Notes: generated by a model not told the origin, from the letters alone. A stretch of 20,000 bases of DNA from an uncultured virus (IMG/VR IMGVR_UViG_3300044611_002505) (IMGVR_UViG_3300044611_002505), one strand, 5' to 3'; positions 2,138 to 17,989 are shown, counted from the stretch's first letter. Numbers and translations are program-made.

Positions 2138-2155
2138 GTTTCTTTGTGGTACGCT
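2138..2155 (+). promoter_or_regulatory. Recurrent motif GTTTC-N5-GGTACGCT, copy 2
   Basis: GTTTCTTTGTGGTACGCT, intergenic, 43 nt before ATG 2199. Confidence 0.8.
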
Positions 2156-2198
2156 GTTCGGTTGTGCGAGAGAGAGCCGACAATAAATAGGAGATAAG

Positions 2199-2309
2199 AT
2201 GCCTGCAACCGCCCCGCCGCCGGTAAAAACCCCGGCAAAGACGCCACAGACACCCACAAGCCCCTTTAAGGCACCCCGCCCAGCGGTAATGCCGGAGCCT
2301 AAGAACTGA
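2199..2309 (+). CDS. Unannotated 36-aa Pro/Thr/Ala/Lys-rich peptide (MPATAPPPVKTPAKTPQTPTSPFKAPRPAVMPEPKN)
   Basis: AGGAG SD at 2189-2193, ATG 2199, TGA 2307-2309 overlapping the next ATG (TGATG). Its Pro/Ala codons explain the local GC-rich patch. Confidence 0.8.
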   Translation: MPATAPPPVKTPAKTPQTPTSPFKAPRPAVMPEPKN

Positions 2310-3364
2310 TGTATAGCAATAGTTTGCACGTTAATCCGAAAATTAGAAATTTTTGGAAAGATTTGAAGAAGAATGAAAGCAATTTTCATGTTTTCAAGAA
2401 AAACAGGAATCTTGTTTACTTTGGCGATGATCTTTCTCAAAAGAGTTATGAGTTTGTTGATGATCGAATAAAGAATCTTGGGATCAATTTTGATTTCAAT
2501 TCTTTGACAAACAAGTTCATTGCTGCTCTTCAAGAAGAAAGTGGTAATGAGGATGTTCTTAAAGAACTCGCGGTTAAAGCTGTGAGTGAGGCTTTTGAGA
2601 TCCCAGAAGATATTTTGGAAGCTCACCTCAATAAAGAAGACATCGATGTTAATTCGACCGATGAAGCGTTCCCAGAAGAAGATTATGATTACGATTCGCT
2701 TTCACAATCTTTGAAGGATAGCATCAACAAAAGAATTCTTTTGAATTGTATTACTCAAGGTGCAAGCATTCATGCTTTTTATACGATGCACCACCTTGTC
2801 AAAAGTGATTTGGAAAAGATTTCAGAAGATATAATTGGTATTTATGATGAGGTAAGCGTTGGAACTGTTTACACATATTGGAAGATTGATTATTCTTCCA
2901 TGCTTGAAAGTTCTGCCAATTTGGATATGCTTGTTCAGGGCAGTTCAAAAGTAGAGTATGGTGAGAATGAAAATGATAATCCAAAAGTAGTGGCAAAGGC
3001 AAGAACGTTTGTTGTTCTTTGTCAAGAACTTGTTAAGGGCGCTATTGAACTGATTAATCTTAATGGTCTAAAAGATTTAGACGAGGAAGAACTCAAAACA
3101 ATATACGCTTTTGCAGATAAGCGTGTAGATGAGCCCAGGTATATTCAAATCTCAAGTGAAATTTGGCGGAAGGTTCTGGCTTTTATCAAGGTTTATAAGG
3201 ATGAGGTTGGAAAGATTTCAATTCCTGATCTTCTTATGAAGATCAGTTTGTTGAATCCAAAAGATATTGAAGATTTCTTTGAACATATGATTTCTGGCGA
3301 TAATACTCAAGCAATTAATTTTCTTAATACCAACGAAGGAGTTATTTCTAATGAAGATTTCTAA
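2309..3364 (+). CDS. Hypothetical protein (351 aa), acidic, with a possible degenerate zincin-like QELVKG motif
   Basis: Long ORF coupled to the upstream peptide and overlapping the rIIA start. Conserved-looking blocks KRILLNCITQGASIHAFYTMHHLV and VVAKARTFVVLCQELVKGAIEL. Confidence 0.75.
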   Translation: MYSNSLHVNPKIRNFWKDLKKNESNFHVFKKNRNLVYFGDDLSQKSYEFVDDRIKNLGINFDFNSLTNKFIAALQEESGNEDVLKELAVKAVSEAFEIPEDILEAHLNKEDIDVNSTDEAFPEEDYDYDSLSQSLKDSINKRILLNCITQGASIHAFYTMHHLVKSDLEKISEDIIGIYDEVSVGTVYTYWKIDYSSMLESSANLDMLVQGSSKVEYGENENDNPKVVAKARTFVVLCQELVKGAIELINLNGLKDLDEEELKTIYAFADKRVDEPRYIQISSEIWRKVLAFIKVYKDEVGKISIPDLLMKISLLNPKDIEDFFEHMISGDNTQAINFLNTNEGVISNEDF

Positions 3365-5522
3365 TAACGGCTCTGTTCTCGATACAAACAACAATAACGC
3401 AGACAGCCTTGAATTCGGTATTGGTGATGTTAGCACCATCATTGATATTCTTCGGAACAGGCTTTATTCAAATCCAATTCGCACTCTGACTCAGGAATAT
3501 CTTTGTAACGGCAGAGACAGTCATCGTGATGCTGGTAGTGCTAATGTTCCTTTAAGGGTTACTCTGCCAACAAAGCTTGACAGCGTTCTTAAGATTAGAG
3601 ATTTTGGAACAGGTTTGTCTCCGGATCGTGTTAAGGATGTTTTCGTTCTTTATGGAAGCAGCACCAAGCGTAAGGATAATGTTCAAACTGGTGGTTTTGG
3701 TATTGGTGCAAAAAGCGCATGGGCTTATACAGACAGCTTTGTTGTTGTGAGCTACCATGACGGTAAGTGTCGAACTTATATCGCTCATACTGGCAAGAAT
3801 AGCAACGGCACCCTTGAACTCATCAATGAAGTTGATTCAACCGAGCCCAATGGCGTTGAAATTCAGGTTCCGGTCAAGGAGTGTGATATTGAGCAGTTTG
3901 TTTCTGCTGTTTATCGCTGCACTTATTTTTGGGATGTTAAGCCTGAGTTGAAGGGAATTACGAATATTGAAATTCCTGCATCTTGGCTTGCAGGAAGTGA
4001 TAAGATTCTTTACAAGAAAGATAATTGGTTTCTTCTTGAAAAGGACGATCTTGTTAAGCGTCTTTTTGACTCATACAACCAGGACATTTATGTTCTGATT
4101 GATAAGATCCCATACAGCATCAATAAGTTTTCTCGGGAATGTCCTGAGGTTGAAAAGCTTAAGTCTGCTTCATATGCAGCTCACATGAGCTTTATTGAAG
4201 TTGGCAACGGTGTTCTTGAAGTTTCTGCTACTCGGGAAAGCATTTCCGACAAGGAAGGCAGCAAGCACAAGGTAAATGAGATTTGTGAAGAGGCAAGAAA
4301 GTCTCTTTATTCTTGTGTGGAAGAGCAGTTTGAAAAAGATTTCAAGGACATTCCATCTTATATTAACTTCTACTTTAAGCTTAAGGCTACATTCAATCTT
4401 GCGAATTTTCCCAAGACTTTGGATGTTGCTTTTAAGAAGAATGGATGTTCTTACAAGCTTCTTTCTAACGGAAAGATTGAATCATCCAGCTTTACTGGTT
4501 GTACGGTTGAGCGATATAACATCAAGCGTCAAAAGACTAGGCGAATTCTTAATCGTGTTGGAAATGCCGAAATTCATTTTGGCGAAGAAAAAGTTAAGTT
4601 TATTCTTGTCAACGAAGATAAGAATGGACGGCATGTCCCTGAATATGTTTTCAAGGAAAAGATTAAGAAGCTTTTCTATGATGATGAAACTCTGTCCTAT
4701 GTTTATGTAATTAATCATTACACGGAAGAGCAAAGGAATAATCTCAAGGATCATCTTGAGGCTATCTACATCACCGACATTCAGCTTGATAAGCCTGCCT
4801 ATAAAGCCAAGAAGGAAAGCGGCACTGTCAGCATCAGGTATATTAAGCCGGCTGATCATCGCTACGGATATAGGCATGGTAAGCTTGAATCTGATAGCAA
4901 GGAGGATGTAACTTTAGAGTCTATTGAGTCCAGTGCTCATAATTATATTTCTGTTCCTTTCTCGGGTTCAGAAGAGTATGATTTCGATAATCCTATCTTT
5001 GTTGAAAATATCAAGTTTCTTATTGAGCATGGTAAATACAAAATCATTAAGCTCAGTAAGAGAGATTATGATGCTGTGAATACCCTTGATAATGTTATGG
5101 AATATTCTGATGTTGCCGAAGCCATCAGTGATCATGTTGAAATTGACGACAAGATTATTGAAGACTTTGTTTTCAAGCAGGCAAGCAATACTTTTGAGCC
5201 TTTGAGGAAGTCTCTCGACAAGATCAAGTGTGATAAGATTGCGGAATATTTCCGGATCAAGGGTCAGGCTCCTGCTGATAATAGAAGGAATGCAACCACT
5301 ATTCCCGATAGGATTCTTGCAATGTATCCATACTATTCTAAGGTCAACGATAATGTAAAGAAGATTGCAAAGCTTGAAGAGGAGATCACTCAGAAGTATC
5401 CTCTAATGAAGCAGCTTAGTTATATCGTTGGCGGATACTACGGCAATCACACAGATCGCAATAAAGAGCTTAATGAGTTTGTATTTTATCTTAATGCCAA
5501 GCATGGCAAGGTGGCTTCGTGA
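3351..5522 (+). CDS. rIIA: rIIA-like protein with N-terminal GHKL (HATPase_c/HSP90-like) ATPase domain
   Basis: LYSNPIR...QEYLCNGRDSH (N box), IRDFGTGLS (G1), STKR.DN.QTGGFGIGAKSAWAYTDSF (G2); 723 aa; an rIIB-like gene lies downstream. Confidence 0.85.
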   Translation: MKISNNGSVLDTNNNNADSLEFGIGDVSTIIDILRNRLYSNPIRTLTQEYLCNGRDSHRDAGSANVPLRVTLPTKLDSVLKIRDFGTGLSPDRVKDVFVLYGSSTKRKDNVQTGGFGIGAKSAWAYTDSFVVVSYHDGKCRTYIAHTGKNSNGTLELINEVDSTEPNGVEIQVPVKECDIEQFVSAVYRCTYFWDVKPELKGITNIEIPASWLAGSDKILYKKDNWFLLEKDDLVKRLFDSYNQDIYVLIDKIPYSINKFSRECPEVEKLKSASYAAHMSFIEVGNGVLEVSATRESISDKEGSKHKVNEICEEARKSLYSCVEEQFEKDFKDIPSYINFYFKLKATFNLANFPKTLDVAFKKNGCSYKLLSNGKIESSSFTGCTVERYNIKRQKTRRILNRVGNAEIHFGEEKVKFILVNEDKNGRHVPEYVFKEKIKKLFYDDETLSYVYVINHYTEEQRNNLKDHLEAIYITDIQLDKPAYKAKKESGTVSIRYIKPADHRYGYRHGKLESDSKEDVTLESIESSAHNYISVPFSGSEEYDFDNPIFVENIKFLIEHGKYKIIKLSKRDYDAVNTLDNVMEYSDVAEAISDHVEIDDKIIEDFVFKQASNTFEPLRKSLDKIKCDKIAEYFRIKGQAPADNRRNATTIPDRILAMYPYYSKVNDNVKKIAKLEEEITQKYPLMKQLSYIVGGYYGNHTDRNKELNEFVFYLNAKHGKVAS

Positions 5523-5806
5523 TGAACTATAAAAAGTGGGAGATTTGTTATCGAGGATCTCTTGGTAAATGGGCGGAGCGTTTAAAAGAAAAAGATGAAA
5601 ATAAGATTGCAGATGGTTTATTTAAAAGATATCTTGATGCAAAGAAGAAACTAAATTCTTTGATCGACGAGATAAATAAGCTTGAAACAGACGCAGAATC
5701 AACGTATCTTTTACTGAACGCCGTTCCGCATAGTATGTCTGAAAGCGAAAATGCTGTTTTTCTTAAAGAATTAATTGTTTATATCAACTCAAAGGAAGAA
5801 AAATGA
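5519..5806 (+). CDS. Hypothetical 95-aa protein resembling the C-terminal helices of the upstream rIIA-like protein
   Basis: Overlaps the rIIA stop. INKLETDAESTYLLL...LKELIVYINSK parallels rIIA IAKLEEEITQKYPLM...LNEFVFYLNAK. Confidence 0.65.
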   Translation: MMNYKKWEICYRGSLGKWAERLKEKDENKIADGLFKRYLDAKKKLNSLIDEINKLETDAESTYLLLNAVPHSMSESENAVFLKELIVYINSKEEK

Positions 5807-6090
5807 AGACTATGGTAAAAGAAAAAAATGTCTCTGAGAATGTTGGAATCGATGTTGAAAAGAAAATCAGCGAGAGCGATGTGATTGATTTGCTTTTCAA
5901 GCAAGTCGAAAAGCCTAAGAATTGCATCAAGATCAAGGCTGTAAATGTTTATGGGAATCGTTATCGAATAAATATTTGGACTGTTGTTCAAGAAGATGGT
6001 TTTGATAAAAATAAGATTACTCAAAGCTATTTTGGTATTGTAGATAGCAATAAAATTAAGATTATAATGGGTGATAAGAAAACTTCGTAG
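5803..6090 (+). CDS. Hypothetical protein (95 aa)
   Basis: ATGA-type overlap with the previous gene; beta-rich-looking segment KAVNVYGNRYRINIW...ITQSYF. Confidence 0.7.
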   Translation: MKTMVKEKNVSENVGIDVEKKISESDVIDLLFKQVEKPKNCIKIKAVNVYGNRYRINIWTVVQEDGFDKNKITQSYFGIVDSNKIKIIMGDKKTS

Positions 6091-6107
6091 TTTCTTCTTG
6101 GTACGCT
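6090..6107 (+). promoter_or_regulatory. Recurrent motif GTTTC-N5-GGTACGCT, copy 3
   Basis: GTTTCTTCTTGGTACGCT; its first G is the G of the upstream TAG; 39 nt before ATG 6147. Confidence 0.8.
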
Positions 6108-6146
6108 TTCTTCTTAGACGGATTATCCACAATAAGCGGGCGTGAT

Positions 6147-7478
6147 ATGAAATACTATAATCTCAACAACTCCATAGTTCTTTCTTTTGATGGTATCGTC
6201 CACACTGTCAGTAAGGACGATTATCGCTACTCTAGGATCAAGGAAGCTCTTTCAAATCAAGATTTTGATTCAGTAAAAGTCGCCGTAGACCCAACCAAAA
6301 ATCTTGATAAGGAAGGGTTTGTTGTTGAGAATGGCTTGGTGTGTTTCAAGGGAGAGCCAATCCCCAGCGTTCTTGGCAATCAATTTTTGAAATACAAGGA
6401 GAGTAGCTGGGTATTCAAGAGTCTTCTCAATTTTTGGTTCAACCTCAAGACCAGGGTGGACAATGAAACTGCAAGCCAGATGATCAATGCTCTTGTTGAG
6501 AATGGGGCATATCCTATTACTGAAGATGGCTTTTATCTGGTCTACAGAAATGGTAATGCAGATCAAACCAAGAGTATTCTCAATAAAAGGAATCAAGAAG
6601 TTGGTTCTATTAACTTCTACAATGTCGCTTCTGTTCCCGAGGAATATAGTAATTTCTTTTACGAGAGAAAGAATCTTGACGATATCTTAACTTCTATTTT
6701 TGGCTTTTCTGCCAAAAAGCTGAAAAAGATTGCAATTCAAGAGATGTTCAAGCCAGCGATCAATTTCGTAGATCATACTTTTCTGCTTTTTGGAGATGCT
6801 TTCAAGGACGTTCTTCATCCAGATAATCTTTATGAAGTTCTTGAGAAAAAGCTTTTCAAGATTACTCATGGCGACGTTTCAAGCTATAGGAATTTCAATA
6901 CTTTTCTTAAAGAATACAGTGTTGAGAAAAATGGAACCTATAGTCAAAAGAAGATACTAAATCTTTTGTCAAGCGCAAAAGAACAAGTGCGTCTTGTTGA
7001 AATTGGTGGTTATTTTGTTGATCTTAAAGAAAAGATTAATCTGGATATCCAAAGAATTCAATTCAGCAACGATTGCCAGACAATCTTTGAATATCTTAGG
7101 TCTGAGCATAGAAAGCTCGGTGATCCAGAGATTGACCTTGATATTGACAAAAATTTCCCAGAATTTTGGGAACTCAATGATGTTGAGGTTGGTAAGCTCA
7201 GGTTTCTTTTCCCCAAGACAAACTATGACTTGAAGGAGTGGACCAACCTAATGCAAAATTGCATTGGCACACATGGATATGATAAAAAGGTTGTTCAAAA
7301 AGGATGTATTGTTTTTGCGCTAATGTCTACAGATACCAACGAAATGATTTATAACGTTGAAATTTCAAGCAAGAATATTGTTCAATTTAATGGTAGGGGT
7401 AATCGTCCTGCAACACCTTCCGAGAAAAAAGAAGTTTGCTCTCTCTTGATGGAAAAAGGATTGATTTTTAAGGAATAA
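6147..7478 (+). CDS. rIIB: rIIB-like N-terminal region fused to a C-terminal PcfJ-like domain
   Basis: N-terminal SIVLSFDG...LLNFWFNL...YPITEDGFYLVYR resembles rIIB. C-terminal PKTNYDLKEWTNLMQNCIG..GY...IVQFNGRGNR matches the PcfJ-like 'L..E...M.HCV..Y...Q..G..N' pattern. Confidence 0.6.
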   Translation: MKYYNLNNSIVLSFDGIVHTVSKDDYRYSRIKEALSNQDFDSVKVAVDPTKNLDKEGFVVENGLVCFKGEPIPSVLGNQFLKYKESSWVFKSLLNFWFNLKTRVDNETASQMINALVENGAYPITEDGFYLVYRNGNADQTKSILNKRNQEVGSINFYNVASVPEEYSNFFYERKNLDDILTSIFGFSAKKLKKIAIQEMFKPAINFVDHTFLLFGDAFKDVLHPDNLYEVLEKKLFKITHGDVSSYRNFNTFLKEYSVEKNGTYSQKKILNLLSSAKEQVRLVEIGGYFVDLKEKINLDIQRIQFSNDCQTIFEYLRSEHRKLGDPEIDLDIDKNFPEFWELNDVEVGKLRFLFPKTNYDLKEWTNLMQNCIGTHGYDKKVVQKGCIVFALMSTDTNEMIYNVEISSKNIVQFNGRGNRPATPSEKKEVCSLLMEKGLIFKE

Positions 7479-7485
7479 TTGATAG

Positions 7486-7514
7486 TTGAAAAACAAACAT
7501 CCATAGTGTATATT
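7486..7514 (+). promoter_or_regulatory. Putative sigma70-like promoter within the 17-bp hairpin
   Basis: TTGAAA (7486-7491), 17 nt, TATATT (7509-7514); ATG 7524 follows 9 nt later with no SD. Confidence 0.5.
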
Positions 7515-7534
7515 ATTTACACTATGGATGTTTG
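7494..7534. repeat. 17-bp perfect inverted repeat containing the probable start codon of the glycosyltransferase
   Basis: CAAACATCCATAGTGTA (7494-7510), loop TATTATT, TACACTATGGATGTTTG (7518-7534); ATG 7524 is in the right arm. Confidence 0.93.
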
Positions 7535-8789
7535 CATATTAACTTGTTATTATAATCCCACCAATTCTGAGAATAGAACTCGGAATTTCTATAAATTCTT
7601 GGATTCCGTTAAATCTAGCGGGATTGAAGATCATCTTTTTGTTTGTGAAATAACAAAAAATGATCAACCAAGATTGACTCCAACAAAAAATCATTTTTTG
7701 TTGTTGAGCGAAGATGATTTGTGGCACAAGGAATGTGCTATAAATTTTTTACTAAAAAAAATACCAGAAATCTATACGAAAATTATAGTTTCTGATTGCG
7801 ATCTTATTTTTAATGATCTTGGCTGGGTTAAAAAGACCAGCGATTTATTAAACGAATATGTGTTTGTCCAACCATACGATAAAATAAAGTATCTTGGACC
7901 CGTAGAAGGCTCCTACGACAGTTTTTATGCCGGTATTGTGTCGTATATGCAAAAGAGTAGGGTTGTGGATTTTGGCAATCCTGGGGCTCTTGTAGCGTAT
8001 AGGAGAGACTATCTGAGTGCTGTTGGCGGGCTTTTTGACAAATGCGTTGTTGGTGGAGGGGATACTATAAACATTATCCCTTTCTTTATTGATAATTTTA
8101 TGAAATTAAATTTTCTCAACAGAATATGCCCAGACACCAGAGTTGAAGCATTAGATCATATAAACAATTGTGTTGATTTTATTAAAAACAGCGGATTAGG
8201 CTCTGCAGCATATTTGAAGGATGTTGTTCTGACTCATTTGTTTCATGGAATGATAAAACACAGACAATACGATTCAAGATACAGTATAATCAATAAAATA
8301 ACATTTAAAAAGAATTTTAAGAAAAAAAATGAATTATACCAGATAACATCAAATGAAAAATTAAAAAGCGATTTAAAAGAATATTTAATTGAAAGAAAAG
8401 AAGATTTTAAGCTGAAAGATACAGCCTCCATATGTATTAATAGTGCTAAATATCCCGTTGAATATGACATATTGTGGTTATGCGAACATAATAGTTTTAT
8501 ATTTAATAATATATCAAGAGTTAAGTTTCATTTGAAGAAAGTTAAACAATTAAAGAATTTTAAAGTAATATCAAATGGTAAAGAAATATTCTCTGTATTT
8601 ATTGAAAATAAAGCGGTTATTGAAATTGAAAATCCAAATGTACTACTGATCAGCTCTGATTACTTTGTTCCCGCTGATCTTGGTGAAAGCAAAGATACAA
8701 GAAGGCTATCCTTTGTTCTTGAAAAAATAGAGATAATTGCTAAAGACGGAACAGAATATACTAATTATCTTTTAGGGGATATATCTTGA
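7524..8789 (+). CDS. GT-A fold glycosyltransferase (GT2/GT7-like) with a C-terminal accessory beta domain
   Basis: LWHKECAIN, IIVSDCDLIF (DxD), GALVAYRRDYLSAVGGLFDKCVVGGGD, HLFHG. Start ATG 7524 (MDVCILTCYYN) preferred to TTG 7479. Confidence 0.75.
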   Translation: MDVCILTCYYNPTNSENRTRNFYKFLDSVKSSGIEDHLFVCEITKNDQPRLTPTKNHFLLLSEDDLWHKECAINFLLKKIPEIYTKIIVSDCDLIFNDLGWVKKTSDLLNEYVFVQPYDKIKYLGPVEGSYDSFYAGIVSYMQKSRVVDFGNPGALVAYRRDYLSAVGGLFDKCVVGGGDTINIIPFFIDNFMKLNFLNRICPDTRVEALDHINNCVDFIKNSGLGSAAYLKDVVLTHLFHGMIKHRQYDSRYSIINKITFKKNFKKKNELYQITSNEKLKSDLKEYLIERKEDFKLKDTASICINSAKYPVEYDILWLCEHNSFIFNNISRVKFHLKKVKQLKNFKVISNGKEIFSVFIENKAVIEIENPNVLLISSDYFVPADLGESKDTRRLSFVLEKIEIIAKDGTEYTNYLLGDIS

Positions 8790-9997
8790 TTGAACAATTT
8801 TTAAACTCCGAGCTAGACCCAATTCAAACAATAGAAGCTTATTCTAAATTTGCTTCTAAATTAATGTTTTTAGAAGAGCTCGTCGTTAGAAAGGTTGTGA
8901 AAAAATTAAAGAAAAATATAGAGGATTGGGCAAAAAATAAAAGTTTGATTTATAAAAATTATAATGGCATCGAAACATACAACAGAAAAGATTTGTTGAA
9001 TAAAGATGGTTGGTATGTTCAAGAGTTGAAAGAGCAGTCGCAAAATTTTTCAACAAGCGGCAGCACAACCGGTGACCCCTTCTCATATAGTATTTGGAGC
9101 AAATACGTAAGTTATATAGAAGATGAACATCAATACGGCATGATATTGGATGAGTTCGATATCTCTAGAAAAGACGCCAATATATTGGTTTTAATGAAAC
9201 TGCCGTATAATCCCAAAATAGAAGAGTTTGGCACAGAGCAGATTGGCGACTCTGGTTATACAATGCATACTCATAAATCCACCACTAGTAAAAGGTGTTT
9301 TGTAAATTTTGATGGATACATTGAAGATGCAGAAACTTGGCATAAAAATTTATTTAAATTTATAGAAAACAAATCATTTGATGTAATCATATCGACTGGA
9401 CCGTCAATAAACACTCTTTGTTTTTATTTGAAAAAATTTAATTATACAAACAAACTCTGTAGATTACTGAGTCATACTGGTGAGTTTTTGATAAAGCAGG
9501 ATGCTTATTATTTAAAAGAAAACAAATATATTGATAATTTTTGTGATCACATGAGATGTTGGGATGGTGGAGCAACATTTTTTACATGTAAATTTGGAAC
9601 CTATCATTTGATGGATAATTTAAGTTGGGTTGAAGAAGGCGAAAACAATAAAATGATAAGCACAGATTACTTTTCCCTACCAGCTCCTTTTATTCGTTAT
9701 TGGAACGGAGATCTTTGTAAAATATCTGATGACTATCAAAGGTGTGATTGCGGTAGACTATATCGTTCCTTCAAGATGCTTGAAAACAGACCGTTTGGTT
9801 TAAAGGGAACAACAAAATTAACATCTATAAAACAACAAGTTTCTAATCTAGATTTTAAACAAGATATTTTGCAGGTAAAATTCGATAATTTAAAAGTTGA
9901 TATTGTTGCAAAAAGAGAACTTCTAGATTTTGAAAAAGAGCAACTAAAAAATATTTTTAATGAATATAAAATAAATTATAGCAATTATGGATCATGA
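8786..9997 (+). CDS. Phenylacetate-CoA ligase/CapK-like adenylate-forming enzyme (ANL superfamily)
   Basis: P-loop-like FSTSGSTTGDPF; TGE; ISTDYF...PFIRYWNGDL...CDCGR corresponds to the PaaK/CapK 'T.L...PLIRY..GD...C.CGR' block. Confidence 0.75.
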   Translation: MIEQFLNSELDPIQTIEAYSKFASKLMFLEELVVRKVVKKLKKNIEDWAKNKSLIYKNYNGIETYNRKDLLNKDGWYVQELKEQSQNFSTSGSTTGDPFSYSIWSKYVSYIEDEHQYGMILDEFDISRKDANILVLMKLPYNPKIEEFGTEQIGDSGYTMHTHKSTTSKRCFVNFDGYIEDAETWHKNLFKFIENKSFDVIISTGPSINTLCFYLKKFNYTNKLCRLLSHTGEFLIKQDAYYLKENKYIDNFCDHMRCWDGGATFFTCKFGTYHLMDNLSWVEEGENNKMISTDYFSLPAPFIRYWNGDLCKISDDYQRCDCGRLYRSFKMLENRPFGLKGTTKLTSIKQQVSNLDFKQDILQVKFDNLKVDIVAKRELLDFEKEQLKNIFNEYKINYSNYGS

Positions 9998-10016
9998 ACT
10001 ACTAAATATTTCATGA
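9992..10016 (+). promoter_or_regulatory. TAAATA late-promoter-like hexamer in the loop of a 7-bp hairpin containing ATG 10013
   Basis: TCATGAA (9992-9998) and TTCATGA (10010-10016); TAAATA at 10003-10008, 4 nt before the ATG. Confidence 0.5.
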
Positions 10017-10195
10017 GAACATTTTTTTTAATTTTACTTTTATCGTTGTTTTGCATTGGATGTAAAGAAGTTTCTTGTAAATGTGGAAGTGAAAAATGCG
10101 GTCCTGAGTGCAAAAATCAATGCGATGGACTTAGATGTATTCCTGGCGAACCTTGCTGCGATAAATGTATTTGTAGAAAAATAAATTACCGCTAG
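10013..10195 (+). CDS. Small Cys-rich putative lipoprotein (60 aa, 12 Cys)
   Basis: MRTFFLILLLSLFCIG/C signal peptide with a lipobox-like CIGC; 10 further Cys in the remaining 43 residues. Confidence 0.7.
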   Translation: MRTFFLILLLSLFCIGCKEVSCKCGSEKCGPECKNQCDGLRCIPGEPCCDKCICRKINYR

Positions 10196-10221
10196 ATTTA
10201 GGATATTTTTTTTGATACAAT
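10193..10221 (+). promoter_or_regulatory. Putative extended -10 promoter giving a leaderless gmd mRNA
   Basis: TG-A-TACAAT (10213-10221), weak TAGATT 17 nt upstream of the hexamer, ATG 7 nt downstream, no SD. Confidence 0.5.
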
Positions 10222-10228
10222 TCCTCAC

Positions 10229-11326
10229 ATGAGAAAAGCATTAATTACAGGTGTCACAGGACAGGATGGTTCTTATCTGTCCGAGCTTTTATTGAACAAA
10301 GGTTATGAAGTTCACGGAATTATAAGAAGAAGTTCATTAATAAATACCAATAGAATTGATCATATATACGATCAATTGAATCTTCATTACGGAGATTTGA
10401 CTGATTCCACGAATATTGTAAGAATTATTCAAAAGGTTCAACCAGATGAAATTTATAATCTGGCGGCTCAAAGTCATGTGAAAGTATCTTTTGAGTTGCC
10501 TGAATATACTGGCGATGTCGATGCTCTTGGAACTTTAAGAGTATTGGAAGCTGTTAGATTATTAGGACTTGAGAAAAACACAAGAATTTATCAAGCATCT
10601 ACTTCTGAGCTTTATGGTCTTGTGCAAGAAATTCCACAAAAAGAAACAACTCCGTTTTACCCAAGATCTCCTTATGGTGTTGCAAAACTGTATGGTTTCT
10701 GGATTGTAAAAAATTACAGAGAATCTTACGGAATGCACGCCAGTTCTGGCATTTTGCACAACCACGAAAGCCCAAGAAGAGGACAAACATTTGTTACTAA
10801 AAAAATAACAGATGCTTTTCACAAGATGTCTATTGGTCAACAGGATTGCCTTTATCTTGGTAATTTAAACGCTAAGCGTGATTGGGGTCACGCAAAAGAT
10901 TTTGTGGAGGCTATGTGGCTTATTCTTCAACAATCTGAGCCTGATGATTATGTGATAGCGACTGGTGAACAACACTCGGTTAGAGAGTTTGTTGAGAAAT
11001 CTGCCTCCTATTTTAATATGAAAATAGAGTGGCAAGGCGAAGAGTTAAACGAAATTGGGATTGATATAAATTCTGGCAAGACAGTTGTTAAAGTTGACCC
11101 CAGATATTTTAGACCAGCAGAGGTTGAATCCCTGCTTGGCGATGCAACAAAAGCAAAAGAAAAATTAGGATGGGTTCCTAAAATTTCTTTTGAACAACTT
11201 GTTGAGGATATGTGCTTAAATCAATTGGAACAAAAAAATGAACAAAACAAGCAGAATATTTGTGACCGGACACAAGGGTTTGGTTGGCTCAGCAATATTA
11301 AGAAATTTACAAAAAAATGGATATAG
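10229..11326 (+). CDS. gmd: GDP-mannose 4,6-dehydratase
   Basis: [80 protein letters not shown]. Confidence 0.98.
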
Positions 11327-12164
11327 CAATATATTTACGGTTGATAAAAAAAATCTTGATTTAACTGATTCGCGAGAAGTAGATAAATACTTTTTAGACA
11401 ATTGTATTGAATATGTTTTTAATGCTGCTGCTAAGGTTGGTGGTATAAAAGCCAATAATACGCAATCCGCTGACTTTATAACACAAAATATAAGAATACA
11501 AACCAATCTTATTGAATCTTCAAATAGACACGGTGTTAAAAAATTCTTGTTTCTTGGCAGTTCTTGTATATACCCAAAATTTGCAAAACAACCAATAACA
11601 GAAGATCAATTTTTAACTGGGCTCCTTGAGCCTACAAATGAAGCTTATGCTATTGCAAAAATCTGTGGAATTAAAATGTGTCAGGCGTATGGTCAGCAAT
11701 ATGGATTCAATGCTATTTCTCTAATGCCAACTAATTTGTATGGTCCAGGAGATAATTATGACCCCAAAAATAGTCATGTTTTGCCCGCAATGATCAGAAG
11801 GTTTCATGAGGCTAAAATTAATAATCTTTCTGAAGTGGTTTGTTGGGGAGATGGATCACCAAAAAGAGAGTTTTTATATGTAGATGATTTGGCGGATGCT
11901 TGTTTGGTTTGTATGTTGAATTACGAAAGCGACGAAATTATTAATGTGGGCACCGGCGCTGATATAACCATAAAAGAACTTGCCGAAATTGTTGCGAATG
12001 TTGTTGGATATAAAGGAAGTATTGTTTGGGATGACATTGCCGCAATAAATGGAACACCCAGAAAGGTTTTAAATATTGATAAGATAAAATCTCTTGGTTG
12101 GGAGGCTAAAATGGATTTGTCTACCGGCATAAGTGTAGCATACTCAAGTTTCTTGGCAAAGTAG
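11238..12164 (+). CDS. fcl: GDP-L-fucose synthase (GDP-4-keto-6-deoxy-D-mannose epimerase/reductase)
   Basis: [72 protein letters not shown]; directly follows gmd. Confidence 0.97.
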
Positions 12165-12181
12165 TTTCCTCCCGGTACGCT
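12164..12181 (+). promoter_or_regulatory. Recurrent motif GTTTC-N5-GGTACGCT, copy 4
   Basis: GTTTCCTCCCGGTACGCT; its first G is the G of the fcl TAG; 35 nt before ATG 12217; identical to copy 5. Confidence 0.8.
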
Positions 12182-12216
12182 CTGTTGGTGGCAGAAAGCA
12201 CCAACAAGAGAAATAT

Positions 12217-15515: not shown

Positions 15516-15533
15516 GTTTCCTCCCGGTACGCT
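15516..15533 (+). promoter_or_regulatory. Recurrent motif GTTTC-N5-GGTACGCT, copy 5
   Basis: GTTTCCTCCCGGTACGCT directly after the TAG at 15513-15515; 43 nt before ATG 15577. Confidence 0.8.
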
Positions 15534-15576
15534 TTGCTGTTGTCGGGAACACAACACACATACTTTAGGAGTTGAT

Positions 15577-16635
15577 ATGTCTGAAAGCCTCATGATTGAT
15601 AGGAATCTTATTACCGGAAGTCTTGCCGATACTATTAGGCGCAACCGTAAGGATGAACGCCCAACTCTTATTTTTGGTCCTCCCGGTGTTGGTAAGAGTG
15701 AACAAGTTAGGCAAGCAGGCGAAGAAGCGGACACTGTAATTGATCTTAGGCTTAACAGCTTGGATTCAATTGATCTGCGTGGTCTGCCCACAATTCAAAA
15801 AGATGAAAACGGTAATCCGACCAAGGTTGTTTGGATTCGCCCTGAGTTTATTCCTTGGGATGGTAGGGGTATTCTTTTCTTGGATGAAATCAATACTGCT
15901 GCTCCAAGCGTTCAAAATCCGGCTCTACAGTTGGTTTTGGATCGCCGCATTGGATCGCATGAATTGGGTAAGGATTGGTATATTTGTGCCGCCGGTAATC
16001 GTGCAGAAGATAAGGCTCATGTTTACCCTCTTAGTGGAGCTTTGATTGATCGATTTGCTGTTTATGATTATCTGCCCGATTATATGACTTGGAGTGATTG
16101 GGCGATGAAGAGCGGTATTCACGATACCGTGATCGGCTTTATTTCTTTTAGGAAAGAGCTTTTGCTTCAGCCAAGAGTTGATGAATACACCCCTAGCACC
16201 AACCCCAGAAGCTGGTCTTATGTAAGCAAGAAACTTCACAATGGACACACAAGCCTTCCAGACATTAGGGCTTGTGTTGGATCGGCTGCAAGTGAGTTTC
16301 TTGCATACCTGGATGTTTATAAGAATCTTCCAGATATGGATAAGCTAATCAGCGGCAAGTCTAAGTGGAAGGAAGATAAGTCTAAGATCAGTGTTAGTTA
16401 TGCAATCAGCACAAGTCTTGCAACCCATCTTCTCGGCAGTAAGACTCCGGAAAAGATTCTCGATAATTGTATGAATGTTGTTCTTGAGATGAGTCCAGAA
16501 CCCGCAGCACTTTTTGTTCGTCGGGCAATGAATTCTACGTCGAAGATTAAGTCTCTCATGTATTCAAGCGATGTTGTTGAAAAGTGGCTTGAGAAAAATC
16601 GAGAACTTATTTCTGCATCTGTGGATCTTGTCTAA
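15577..16635 (+). CDS. MoxR-type AAA+ ATPase
   Basis: Walker A GPPGVGKS, DLRGLP, Walker B ILFLDEIN, AAGNR sensor, ALIDRF Arg finger, NPRSW; AGGAG SD. Confidence 0.92.
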   Translation: MSESLMIDRNLITGSLADTIRRNRKDERPTLIFGPPGVGKSEQVRQAGEEADTVIDLRLNSLDSIDLRGLPTIQKDENGNPTKVVWIRPEFIPWDGRGILFLDEINTAAPSVQNPALQLVLDRRIGSHELGKDWYICAAGNRAEDKAHVYPLSGALIDRFAVYDYLPDYMTWSDWAMKSGIHDTVIGFISFRKELLLQPRVDEYTPSTNPRSWSYVSKKLHNGHTSLPDIRACVGSAASEFLAYLDVYKNLPDMDKLISGKSKWKEDKSKISVSYAISTSLATHLLGSKTPEKILDNCMNVVLEMSPEPAALFVRRAMNSTSKIKSLMYSSDVVEKWLEKNRELISASVDLV

Positions 16636-16648
16636 TTAGAAAGAATAT

Positions 16649-17989
16649 ATGCCTACAAAGACAAAATCTAAGATGAAGACGGACAACAATAGTCTTGAGA
16701 TTTCTCAAGAAGAAGAAGAAGGATTTCGTAAGAGACTAGATCTCGTATTGTTTGGTTTTGCTCATTGGTTTCCTTTTTGGGGAATTTTGAGTGAAAGATG
16801 CCGATATAGTTTGACAAAGAACAATCTTCTTTGCCCGACTGCGTGCGTTGATAAAAATGGTCATATTATTTTCAACCTTGAGTTTGTTGCCACATTGAGC
16901 AACGAGCAATTTCTTTTCTTGGTTGCTCATGAAATTTGCCATTTTGTTTTTGAGCACGCCCCCAGAATGGGAAGTAGAGATCCTTTATTGTGGAACATAT
17001 CAGCAGATTATGCCATTAATTTGATGCTTCATTATCAATTCAACAACATGAAATATGTCATCAAGGACATTGTTTTTGATGATTCTTGGAAGAATGGCGG
17101 AGAGTGTAAGTACGACGGATTGACTGTCGAGGCTATTTACGAAGATCTTAAGAACGATAAAGACAATAAGTTTGTTAAGGCTATGGGGTCTGGCAACTCC
17201 CCCAGAGATATTGTTGTTTATGTTTTCGACGAAAATGAAAATGACTCAGGCGGCAAGCCGTCTGAGGGTGAAATAAAGTATGTTGAAGTTAGAAGTAGGC
17301 GTGTTCCACTTCCAACCAAAAAAGGTAAGTCTCCCGAACAAATTTCTCAGGAAATGAAGGATCATGTTCGTAAAGCAATTACCGAGGCTTTTACTATTTC
17401 TAAGAGCCAAGGTAATCTTCCCGCCAATTTTGAGCGAGCTATCCACAAGCTTTTAAAGCCAAAGATTGATTGGGTTTCTGCCCTAAGGCAGCGATTGAGG
17501 CATGGCGTCAGTAGAATGGAAAAAAGAGACACCACTTGGATGATTCCTAACCGTAGGTTTCTTGGTGGAGATTTTGTTTTTCCAAGTAATATTGGTCCCG
17601 AAAGTCCTAAGATTTGCTATGCCATTGATACAAGCGGCAGTATGAGTCCAGAAGATATTACCAAGGCTATTTCTGAGCTTGAGGAAATTCGAAAGAGGTT
17701 TAATGCAAAGGTTTATTTTCTTGATTGTGATGCAAATGTTTATTCAAGCAGGTGGATTGGTCCGAATGAGCCACTCCCTAAATTAGCCGGTGGTGGTGGA
17801 ACTGATTTTAGACCTGTGTTTGAACACTTGAACGATAAGAGAATCAATCCAGATTACTGTATATTTTTCACAGATGGATATGGTGAATTTGGAGCAAATC
17901 AAAAGCATCTGAACGTTCTTTGGATTATGACTAGCGATGTTGTTCCTCCATTTGGAGACGTTATTCGTTATAATGTAATGCAGGAGTAG
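16649..17989 (+). CDS. DUF2201-type protein: N-terminal HExxH metallopeptidase-like domain plus C-terminal VWA domain
   Basis: TACVD, AHEICH, WNISADYAIN; MIDAS DTSGSM, GGGGTDFRPVF, FTDGYG; the usual partner of the upstream ATPase. Confidence 0.92.
   Translation: MPTKTKSKMKTDNNSLEISQEEEEGFRKRLDLVLFGFAHWFPFWGILSERCRYSLTKNNLLCPTACVDKNGHIIFNLEFVATLSNEQFLFLVAHEICHFVFEHAPRMGSRDPLLWNISADYAINLMLHYQFNNMKYVIKDIVFDDSWKNGGECKYDGLTVEAIYEDLKNDKDNKFVKAMGSGNSPRDIVVYVFDENENDSGGKPSEGEIKYVEVRSRRVPLPTKKGKSPEQISQEMKDHVRKAITEAFTISKSQGNLPANFERAIHKLLKPKIDWVSALRQRLRHGVSRMEKRDTTWMIPNRRFLGGDFVFPSNIGPESPKICYAIDTSGSMSPEDITKAISELEEIRKRFNAKVYFLDCDANVYSSRWIGPNEPLPKLAGGGGTDFRPVFEHLNDKRINPDYCIFFTDGYGEFGANQKHLNVLWIMTSDVVPPFGDVIRYNVMQE

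Follow-up and report, generated by a model that had tools for sequence, protein, structure and literature searches.

In type II toxin-antitoxin systems, and likewise with zymogen propeptides, a small gene for a disordered product lies upstream of a larger enzyme-like gene and is coupled to it, and such pairs are rare and patchily distributed in chromosomes. Tags of the Pup and ubiquitin-like kind are short peptides with a conserved C-terminal motif, GG[E/Q], served by a dedicated enzyme. Borosins are alpha-N-methyltransferase RiPP systems in which enzyme and peptide are made in one chain or from separate genes, in varied architectures (bioRxiv 10.1101/2021.12.24.474128). Prohead proteases of giant phages cut after Glu, at A-X-E or S/A/G(/T)-X-E, and free N-terminal propeptides, and the processed head proteins of SPN3US, phiKZ and 201phi2-1 are ejected into the host (PMC10052503, PMC5694885).

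The locus described here lies in a 20,000-nt stretch of DNA from an uncultured virus (the window), encodes a 36-residue peptide and a 351-residue partner protein, and looks like an undescribed enzyme-peptide system. As in toxin-antitoxin and zymogen pairs, the small gene is upstream and coupled, binding between the two products is predicted, and the module is rare and patchy in chromosomes. It differs from them in having no DNA-binding part, in a motif that is family-wide and often in tandem, in a gene order that is reversed at some loci (L148-L150, L155), and in giving no match to PADLOC. The peptide resembles Pup and ubiquitin-like tags in being short and probably disordered, in its conserved C-terminal motif with a variable extension, and in lying beside a dedicated enzyme, but the motif is PxPK[A/N/G] instead of GG[E/Q], and family searches found no PafA/Dop or E1/E2 relative in the partner. 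A ribosomal precursor-like gene linked to or fused with an enzyme-like partner is what a RiPP system would have, and the plasticity between fused and split forms of enzyme and peptide is shared with the borosins (bioRxiv 10.1101/2021.12.24.474128). In contrast to the borosins, the partner domain is unrelated to the borosin enzyme and the bacterial loci have no conserved third gene. No known RiPP-modifying family, alpha-N-methyltransferases included, was matched in Pfam or NCBIfam by the window protein or by the 60 and 12 further proteins scanned. The literature yielded no description of the peptide/partner pair; a mention in a supplementary table is possible.

Genomic setting in a large phage

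The source of the window, whose GC content is 35%, is a large uncultured phage. The nearest related record is a linear viral contig of 187,644 nt, the close homologs of the partner sit on viral contigs of 118-459 kb, and the gene content includes a rIIA-like gene, nucleotide-sugar epimerases, a GP88 protein and an AAA ATPase/VWA pair. The first-pass annotation had described a small ORF, missed by gene calling, as the first gene after the second copy of a repeated intergenic motif, with a strong Shine-Dalgarno sequence and a stop/start overlap with the next gene; all of these elements were found where it had placed them (Table 1).

Table 1. Features of the peptide/partner operon, numbered from the first nucleotide of the window
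Feature	Position	Strand	Remark
Motif copy 2 of GTTTC..GGTACGCT	2138..2171	+	One of five intergenic copies
Shine-Dalgarno-like AGGAG	2189..2193	+	5 nt before the peptide ATG
Peptide gene, 36 aa, ATG start, TGA stop	2199..2309	+	Residues 1-21 variable, Pro/Thr/Lys-rich; 22-36 conserved motif
Docking motif PF..P....PxPKN, codons 22-36	2262..2306	+	Invariant residues and predicted interface
TGATG stop/start overlap	2307..2311	+	Putative translational coupling
Partner gene, 351 aa, gluzincin-like domain with QExxK for HExxH	2309..3364	+	Unnamed family
rIIA-like gene	3351..5522	+	phrog_612, E 1.2e-76; 14-nt overlap with the partner end

All five copies of GTTTC(pyrimidines)GGTACGCT are intergenic and on the + strand, the other four at 1545-1578, 6090-6123, 12164-12197 and 15516-15549. 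They are probably a phage promoter or regulator site, and copy 2 would head the peptide/partner operon. GGTAC was present 28-51 nt ahead of the peptide start in 7 of 19 related loci. The five-copy motif was rejected as a sigma-54 promoter because the GG-N10-GC spacing of the consensus was absent, as judged by eye, in every copy. A perfect TTGACA-16-TATAAT site of the sigma-70 type is found at 1764-1791, ahead of a DUF6899 gene (1812-2132).

Expression from the same operon as rIIA had been part of the earlier inference. A functional link to rIIA was not borne out: of 19 phage loci, 6 have rIIA directly after the partner gene (7 had no following ORF called), and the bacterial loci have no common neighbour. 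We regard the rIIA-like gene as a co-transcribed neighbour outside the conserved module. In the window it opens a stretch (3351-7478) that continues with two 95-codon ORFs and a 443-aa protein with a rIIB-like N-terminus and a PcfJ-like C-terminus. The cluster at 7479-12164, with two unassigned 400-aa proteins and two genes of the nucleotide-sugar epimerase family (phrog_540), suggests phage-encoded sugar modification. Immediately after motif copy 5, an AAA ATPase gene is followed by one for a DUF2201 metallopeptidase-VWA protein (15577-17989).

Reality and conservation of the peptide gene

The peptide has 12 Pro and 5 Thr residues, and its gene has a GC content of 0.64 against 0.35 in the window. 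When the window and the relatives L001 and L002 were compared pairwise, the peptide genes differed at 4, 5 and 5 codons, always silently and at the third position. Three other phage pairs had 23 silent and 9 changing codons, and five bacterial pairs had 71 and 23, respectively. Because the differences to two close relatives are all silent and 29 of 34 related loci carry the gene, this 36-codon gene is real, and by these codon comparisons the peptide is a conserved gene. It is below the usual size for gene callers, so the pairing is easily missed.

P22, F23, P28, P32, P34, K35 and N36 were invariant in 18 of 18 aligned peptides (that of L009, whose natural product is three residues longer, was cut at N36 for alignment). 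The residue after the invariant Lys was A in 38, N in 17 and G in 2 of 57 motif copies, with free variation beyond it. Within the six frames of the window, PxPK[NAG] occurred only in the peptide gene and once in an antisense frame, and four viral records searched had one copy of the peptide apiece.

The tight TGATG join stood for the window, and 13 of 19 loci had a similarly close spacing of peptide stop and partner start (-1 to +2 nt). Such a join is not general, the whole range being -14 to +554 nt. Gaps of this range with varying phase exclude a programmed fusion of peptide and partner, whether by frameshift or by read-through. In L022 (2447-2886), two small ORFs occupy the 554-nt gap, and both genes are retained.

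The 12 Pro codons, the position at the head of the operon and the TGATG overlap would also suit a cis-acting leader, that is, a proline-sensing attenuator or a ribosome-stalling upstream ORF, the peptide of which has no function. This we hold to be extremely improbable: the sequence motif itself is conserved, beyond its Pro content, and at other loci it is part of a fusion, follows the domain or stands at a distance of 554 nt; the + strand between 1300 and 3200 had no terminator-like site listed; and docking of the peptide is predicted, as described below.

The partner belongs to an unnamed family

As reported before, the partner contains QGASIHAFYTMHHLV and QELVKG. Almost all of its 81 close homologs begin at a common MYxNSLHVNP-like end. 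A profile search of 1.84 billion representatives gave 1,191 clusters at E 0.001 and 752 at 1e-10; our distant set is the best 150 of the 1,191 matches, 148 of them new. The HELxKG proteins with a P..P.PK[AN] segment, which the first-pass annotation had brought up, do exist.

E240 and K243 were invariant among 149 sequences, and R142, N146, G151, Y179, D270, E275 and W286 were nearly so. For the distant representatives the counts were 148 of 148 for both E240 and K243, 145 of 147 for E275, 143 of 148 for D270 and 136 of 140 for N146. The partner had no significant match in Pfam (best E 0.018), PHROGs (0.029) or NCBIfam (0.064) and none in PADLOC; its best match among PDB sequences, at E 0.04, was to a designed protein. 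No homolog was detected in 50,697 phage records, and two queries of the ESM Atlas gave no usable match. The partner is an enzyme-like protein of an unnamed family that fits none of the families compared. A large family of this kind is now paired with a probable ligand, which is usually missing for such families, and producing and testing a 36-residue peptide with a 351-residue protein would take only days. Several long homologs (P0084, P0085, P0097, P0126, P0143 and P0176) join the domain to another phage domain, likewise unnamed, which has DP.G..YxxYI...TxWC.. blocks and had no Pfam match.

A gluzincin-like layout with a changed zinc motif

The model of the partner (pLDDT 91.3, pTM 0.91) is mainly helical with three strands, the last of which leads into helix 234-254 bearing Q239-E240-x-x-K243. 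Foldseek found no match in PDB at E 0.001 and a sole significant match in BFVD, UniProt A0A6J5Q1V8 (E 6.5e-8, TM 0.60 by query). This is an uncharacterized protein of an uncultured Caudovirales phage, probably of the same family as the partner; it differs in its length of 499 aa, has 14% identity to the partner and has no assigned function.

With Z scores all below the decisive level and in the tool's range for a possibly common arrangement, the unseeded structural search returned a DUF885 lipoprotein (3u24; a low Z of 5.2, rmsd 5.3 A, 201 residues), the M32 carboxypeptidase 1k9x (Z 4.7, rmsd 5.6, 191 residues) and oligoendopeptidase F 2h1j (Z 4.4, rmsd 5.2, 191 residues), and for a second model the top 16 of 48,161 chains were all M32, M3, M2, M1, M30, DUF885, MATCAP or alike (Z 4.5-3.2, rmsd 4.6-6.9, 145-204 residues aligned; best Z 4.5 with rmsd 6.0 A over 190). 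We take M32 (1k9x, 3hq2), M3 (2h1j, 4ka8, 1y79), M2/ACE (3nxq), the DUF885 lipoproteins (3u24, 3o0y, 3iuk) and MATCAP (7z6s) to be gluzincins, and the long structural alignments of both models lead to such peptidases. The zincin fold suggested earlier may be reflected in these long alignments, the scores of which are weak; the Foldseek search against PDB gave no sign of it. An hhalign comparison of the family profile with a DUF885 profile (29 loci) found no similarity (probability 0.3). As modelled, the partner fold resembles gluzincin peptidases weakly but consistently.

The gluzincin zinc motif is HExxH, and the window protein reads QELVK at this place. The residue before ExxK was Q in 80 of 81 close homologs; among the 148 representatives it was Q in 99 and H in 36 of the 139 parsed, and among the 50 bacterial loci H in 29 and K in 11 of the 40 parsed. 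The last motif position was K in all 148 representatives. The catalytic Glu of gluzincins and the downstream Glu that serves them as third ligand, which spacing would equate with E240 and E275, are present at the frequencies given above, the latter 36 residues after the first motif position in 80 of 81 close homologs.

In common with gluzincins, the partner has a small sheet followed by a helix with an xExx motif, a further Glu 36 residues on and, in prediction, a peptide along the edge strand and motif helix. In contrast to them, it has [Q/H/K]ExxK for HExxH and about 330 aa for 500-700 aa, and it is accompanied by its own dedicated peptide. Since HExxH reads QExxK, the partner is not a standard zinc protease; it is gluzincin-like in layout at most, the zinc motif placing it outside the gluzincins. 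It may descend from a gluzincin peptidase the metal site of which was rebuilt, the second His having become Lys throughout and the first often Gln or Lys. With the zinc motif changed in this way, the chemistry proposed for the partner is a guess. If active, a zincin-like centre in which Lys has replaced a zinc histidine would mean new chemistry; if inactive, it would make the protein a new kind of peptide receptor.

The predicted complex and what the partner may do

The model of the peptide-partner complex scored 0.88 in three runs, against 0.02 for the best of three controls; its contacts agreed to at least 91%, and the pLDDT of the partner was at least 64. This score mark was reached by 116 of 157 solved pairs and 2 of 215 mismatched pairs, counts that are rough with own alignments. 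No similar complex was found by sequence among solved structures, so that memory is an unlikely cause of the prediction. Peptide and partner very probably form a cognate binding pair.

The predicted interface on the peptide, residues 22-36, is precisely its conserved part. On the partner it includes 149, 209-215, 240, 243-245, 266, 270, 272 and 275, in strand 209-215, helix 240-255 and region 266-275, and so takes in E240, K243, D270 and E275. The best-defined pairs place F23 on 245-249 and P28-P32 on 259-266; the 25 best-defined contact pairs cover peptide residues 22-32, and the placement of K35/N36 on E240/K243 comes from the lists of interface residues. The interface lists do not name the histidine block singled out earlier (H155, H161, H162). 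An independent single-chain model, of the fused homolog P0107 (30% identity), gave the motif at 31-50 pLDDT of 90 and 86 and no regular structure, with flanks at 51-63 and under 50.

The T-P/S-P repeats, pointed out earlier, number 1 to 5 in each of 18 phage peptides, and the partner might accordingly be pictured as a kinase-like or RiPP tailoring enzyme that phosphorylates them or modifies their side chains. We consider this very improbable, as the sites belong to the variable stretch, which the predicted interface does not include and which the model of the fused homolog gives with low confidence, and the structural matches included no kinase or nucleotide-binding fold.

Our tentative preference is for a catalytic reading, in which the partner acts enzymatically on its own peptide, cutting or transferring it at the lysine; taken as a whole, it has close to, though somewhat less than, an even chance of being correct. 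The two genes would form a self-contained module of enzyme and cognate peptide. The last 15 residues of the peptide would lie along the E240-x-x-K243 helix, beside strand 209-215, and reach D270/E275, as in the predicted complex. The invariant Lys would be where the partner acts; most likely it would break the K-[A/N/G] bond and so leave a uniform PxPK end, and this end might be transferred to another amine, on a host protein or at the N-terminus of the peptide itself. An invariant Lys and a small residue followed by free variation suit a substrate cut at K-[A/N/G], as do tandem copies with no other processing site and the docking over an invariant cluster of acidic and basic residues. The acidic pocket with its Lys/Arg could, however, merely bind the Lys and C-terminus of the peptide, and an active-site plug or a non-catalytic receptor or head factor fits the docking equally well.

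The more specific proposal of tagging, by which a zincin descendant lacking the zinc motif uses a Glu/Lys/Glu centre to cut after PxPK and ligates the peptide to a protein target or to itself, is unlikely to be right in full. If true, it would provide an ATP-free, two-gene counterpart of ubiquitin and Pup tagging common to large phages and PVC bacteria; in many phages the system would be packaged in the head as a polyprotein and reach the host by injection.

Co-occurrence of peptide and domain in phages

Inspection of the homologs' upstream DNA and fusions, which had been proposed as a check, found the peptide with the domain in most of the window's clade, in fused relatives and in bacteria. 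The clade comprised 34 loci, found by the partner or by close alignment, several being one contig in two collections; 29 of them had an upstream peptide gene, in 19 distinct versions. In the others, L023 and L025 had no peptide, L034 was fused, and L016 and L033 had no upstream DNA. Among the 148 distant representatives, 46 had the strict motif and the domain in one chain, the motif standing on either side of the domain in 1-3 copies, with tandem units of 36-52 aa in ten proteins. A set of 26 viral loci, which leaves out three repeats of the window's clade, had 17 fused forms, 6 with the motif in a separate ORF and 3 without it (L097-L099). In the deeper viral set (70 of 74 loci, 42 distinct), the motif was in a downstream frame of 50-111 codons, at the end of the upstream protein or fused in 16 of the 42, and a wider search added two further loci; it was not found nearby in the remaining 24. 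The peptide gene lies downstream of the domain in L148-L150 and L155, and the PxPK motif also ends other phage proteins.

As to a peptide encoded elsewhere, a profile search of five records lacking a nearby one found none (no positive control; records 15-74% complete), and a DNA pattern had no real match in four such records of the same completeness, with G001 as positive control. Since the motif is absent near 24 of 42 deep loci and near L023, L025 and L097-L099, the domain may work without the peptide. Taken over the family, the peptide is found with the domain by sequence in every position named here: upstream, downstream, fused before or after it, and as the tail of a neighbouring protein. 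The proposal of a two-gene peptide/partner system held up in these homologs and in the predicted complex.

In a tree of 70 sequences and 183 columns (FastTree, midpoint root), the window clade (0.99), the bacterial clade (1.0) and other split forms branched at different places; no direction of change is drawn from it.

Bacterial cassettes

The domain was found at 50 loci in bacterial genomes, mostly of Planctomycetota with some Verrucomicrobia and other groups; Novipirellula herctigrandis and Singulisphaera sp. GP187 are isolates among them. At 48 of these loci, the domain gene is directly preceded by a small ORF of its own with PFxPxW...PxPK[A/G]; the exceptions are L057, with 83 nt upstream only, and L077, with a PK-L version beside a truncated gene. 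The bacterial peptide pattern had no match in 131,873 nt of control loci. No third gene, such as a target, transporter or receptor, was conserved, and the largest shared neighbour set covered 6 of the 50 loci. In L035-L083, two segments of the domain are in swapped order relative to the phage domain, with the invariant residues unchanged. Frameshifted or truncated partner genes were seen in L076, L077, L079, L081, L082 and L083 (the last an isolate genome), in some possibly through sequencing errors of long reads.

The module is thus common to large uncultured phages and about 1% of the Planctomycetota genomes sampled, and little work has been done on the phages of this phylum. This presence on both sides makes it a candidate phage-host conflict system, in which the processed peptide would be an effector, a tag or signal, in host takeover or in the conflict.

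In a toxin-antitoxin-like arrangement, the partner would be an enzyme with a different substrate, toxic to the host or remodelling it, and the peptide would plug its active site as a pseudo-substrate inhibitor, a detached propeptide; loss or dilution of the peptide would release the enzyme, in phages after injection and in bacteria on infection. The peptide covers the invariant cluster in the predicted complex, its gene is upstream and tightly coupled in the window clade and in bacteria, and the system has only two genes while its contexts change. The cassette is also rare, with 2 of 300 further Planctomycetota genomes of unstated completeness positive, one by a weak partial match, and 6 of 8 short-reading bacterial copies inspected were frameshifted or truncated, some possibly by long-read errors. 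Against this, one motif is kept across enzymes of about 25% identity and stands in 2-3 tandem copies, which makes turnover likelier than a 1:1 plug; the peptide gene can be downstream, as at the four-locus group cited above; numerous phage loci have no nearby peptide; and PADLOC, as mentioned, recognized nothing. We rate this arrangement, the chief alternative, as rather unlikely, and retain the catalytic reading.

A head-protease signature in relatives

Of the 148 representatives, 72 are extended at the N-terminus and have a domain start that can be placed. In 35 of these, [LMFIV]xE stands two residues ahead of the domain's first Tyr, and in 22 [KR]xA stands there, together 57, against a background of about 1.5% per position nearby; the sequences are related, so that binomial values overstate the excess. 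The predicted cut position corresponds to Met1 of the window protein. L090, L109, L110, L111 and L113 encode peptide and domain in two genes, and by eye either gene has a short leader of its own that ends in Glu. The [LMFIV]xE site was absent between tandem motif copies at 11 of 11 junctions. Both proteins of the window clade start at their own Met and have no leader. The fused gene of L106 is flanked by those for the portal and the head maturation protease, with the major capsid gene farther downstream; L092 adjoins a head maturation protease gene on the opposite strand, and L090 is near a major capsid gene. No other locus had a head-gene context.

The x-x-E at the domain boundary is shared with the Glu-ended three-residue cleavage motif of the ejection proteins of SPN3US, phiKZ and 201phi2-1, which is A-X-E or S/A/G(/T)-X-E, unlike the [LMFIV]xE or [KR]xA of the partner relatives (PMC10052503, PMC5694885). 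No homology of the partner to giant-phage ejection proteins was found in the 50,697 phage records. [LMFIV]xE resembles the T4 gp21 motif; a search for a published protease specificity matching [KR]xA found none.

This pattern suggests that the fused forms of relatives may be a virion-packaged polyprotein. All arrangements would then lead to two free products, the peptide (about 35-50 aa) and the domain, and many phages would package both; they apparently carry the module as injected head cargo. Joined to the catalytic reading, the module of most phages would be made as a head polyprotein from which the prohead protease releases peptide units (about 35-50 aa) and the domain, both to be delivered to the host. 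The leaderless window clade would make the two products directly, from an operon expressed at infection time.

The same loci could be read without catalysis, the partner being a dead zincin that binds PxPK segments as a receptor or head-assembly factor, perhaps one that loads, organises or clears the internal proteins of the head, and the separate-gene forms retaining a binding or signalling role only. The loss of both zinc histidines in the window clade agrees with this, as do the head-protease-like leaders of fused forms, the position of L090, L092 and L106 beside portal, protease or major capsid genes, and the motif at the end of other phage proteins. The pair also occurs, however, in bacterial chromosomes with no common neighbouring gene, and the window clade is leaderless and lies among non-structural genes; moreover, E240, K243, D270, E275 and N146 appear to be kept more strictly than a binding surface usually needs. 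We judge such a factor to be distinctly unlikely.

The N-termini of L034 (1243-4077) and of P0105, P0120, P0141, P0145, P0161 and P0220 are those of unrelated neighbours with a common basic leader, roughly SKKEWExIGxKAGW followed by [KR]xA. This leader is a candidate signal for targeting to the head in a group of phages whose head protease would not be Glu-specific.
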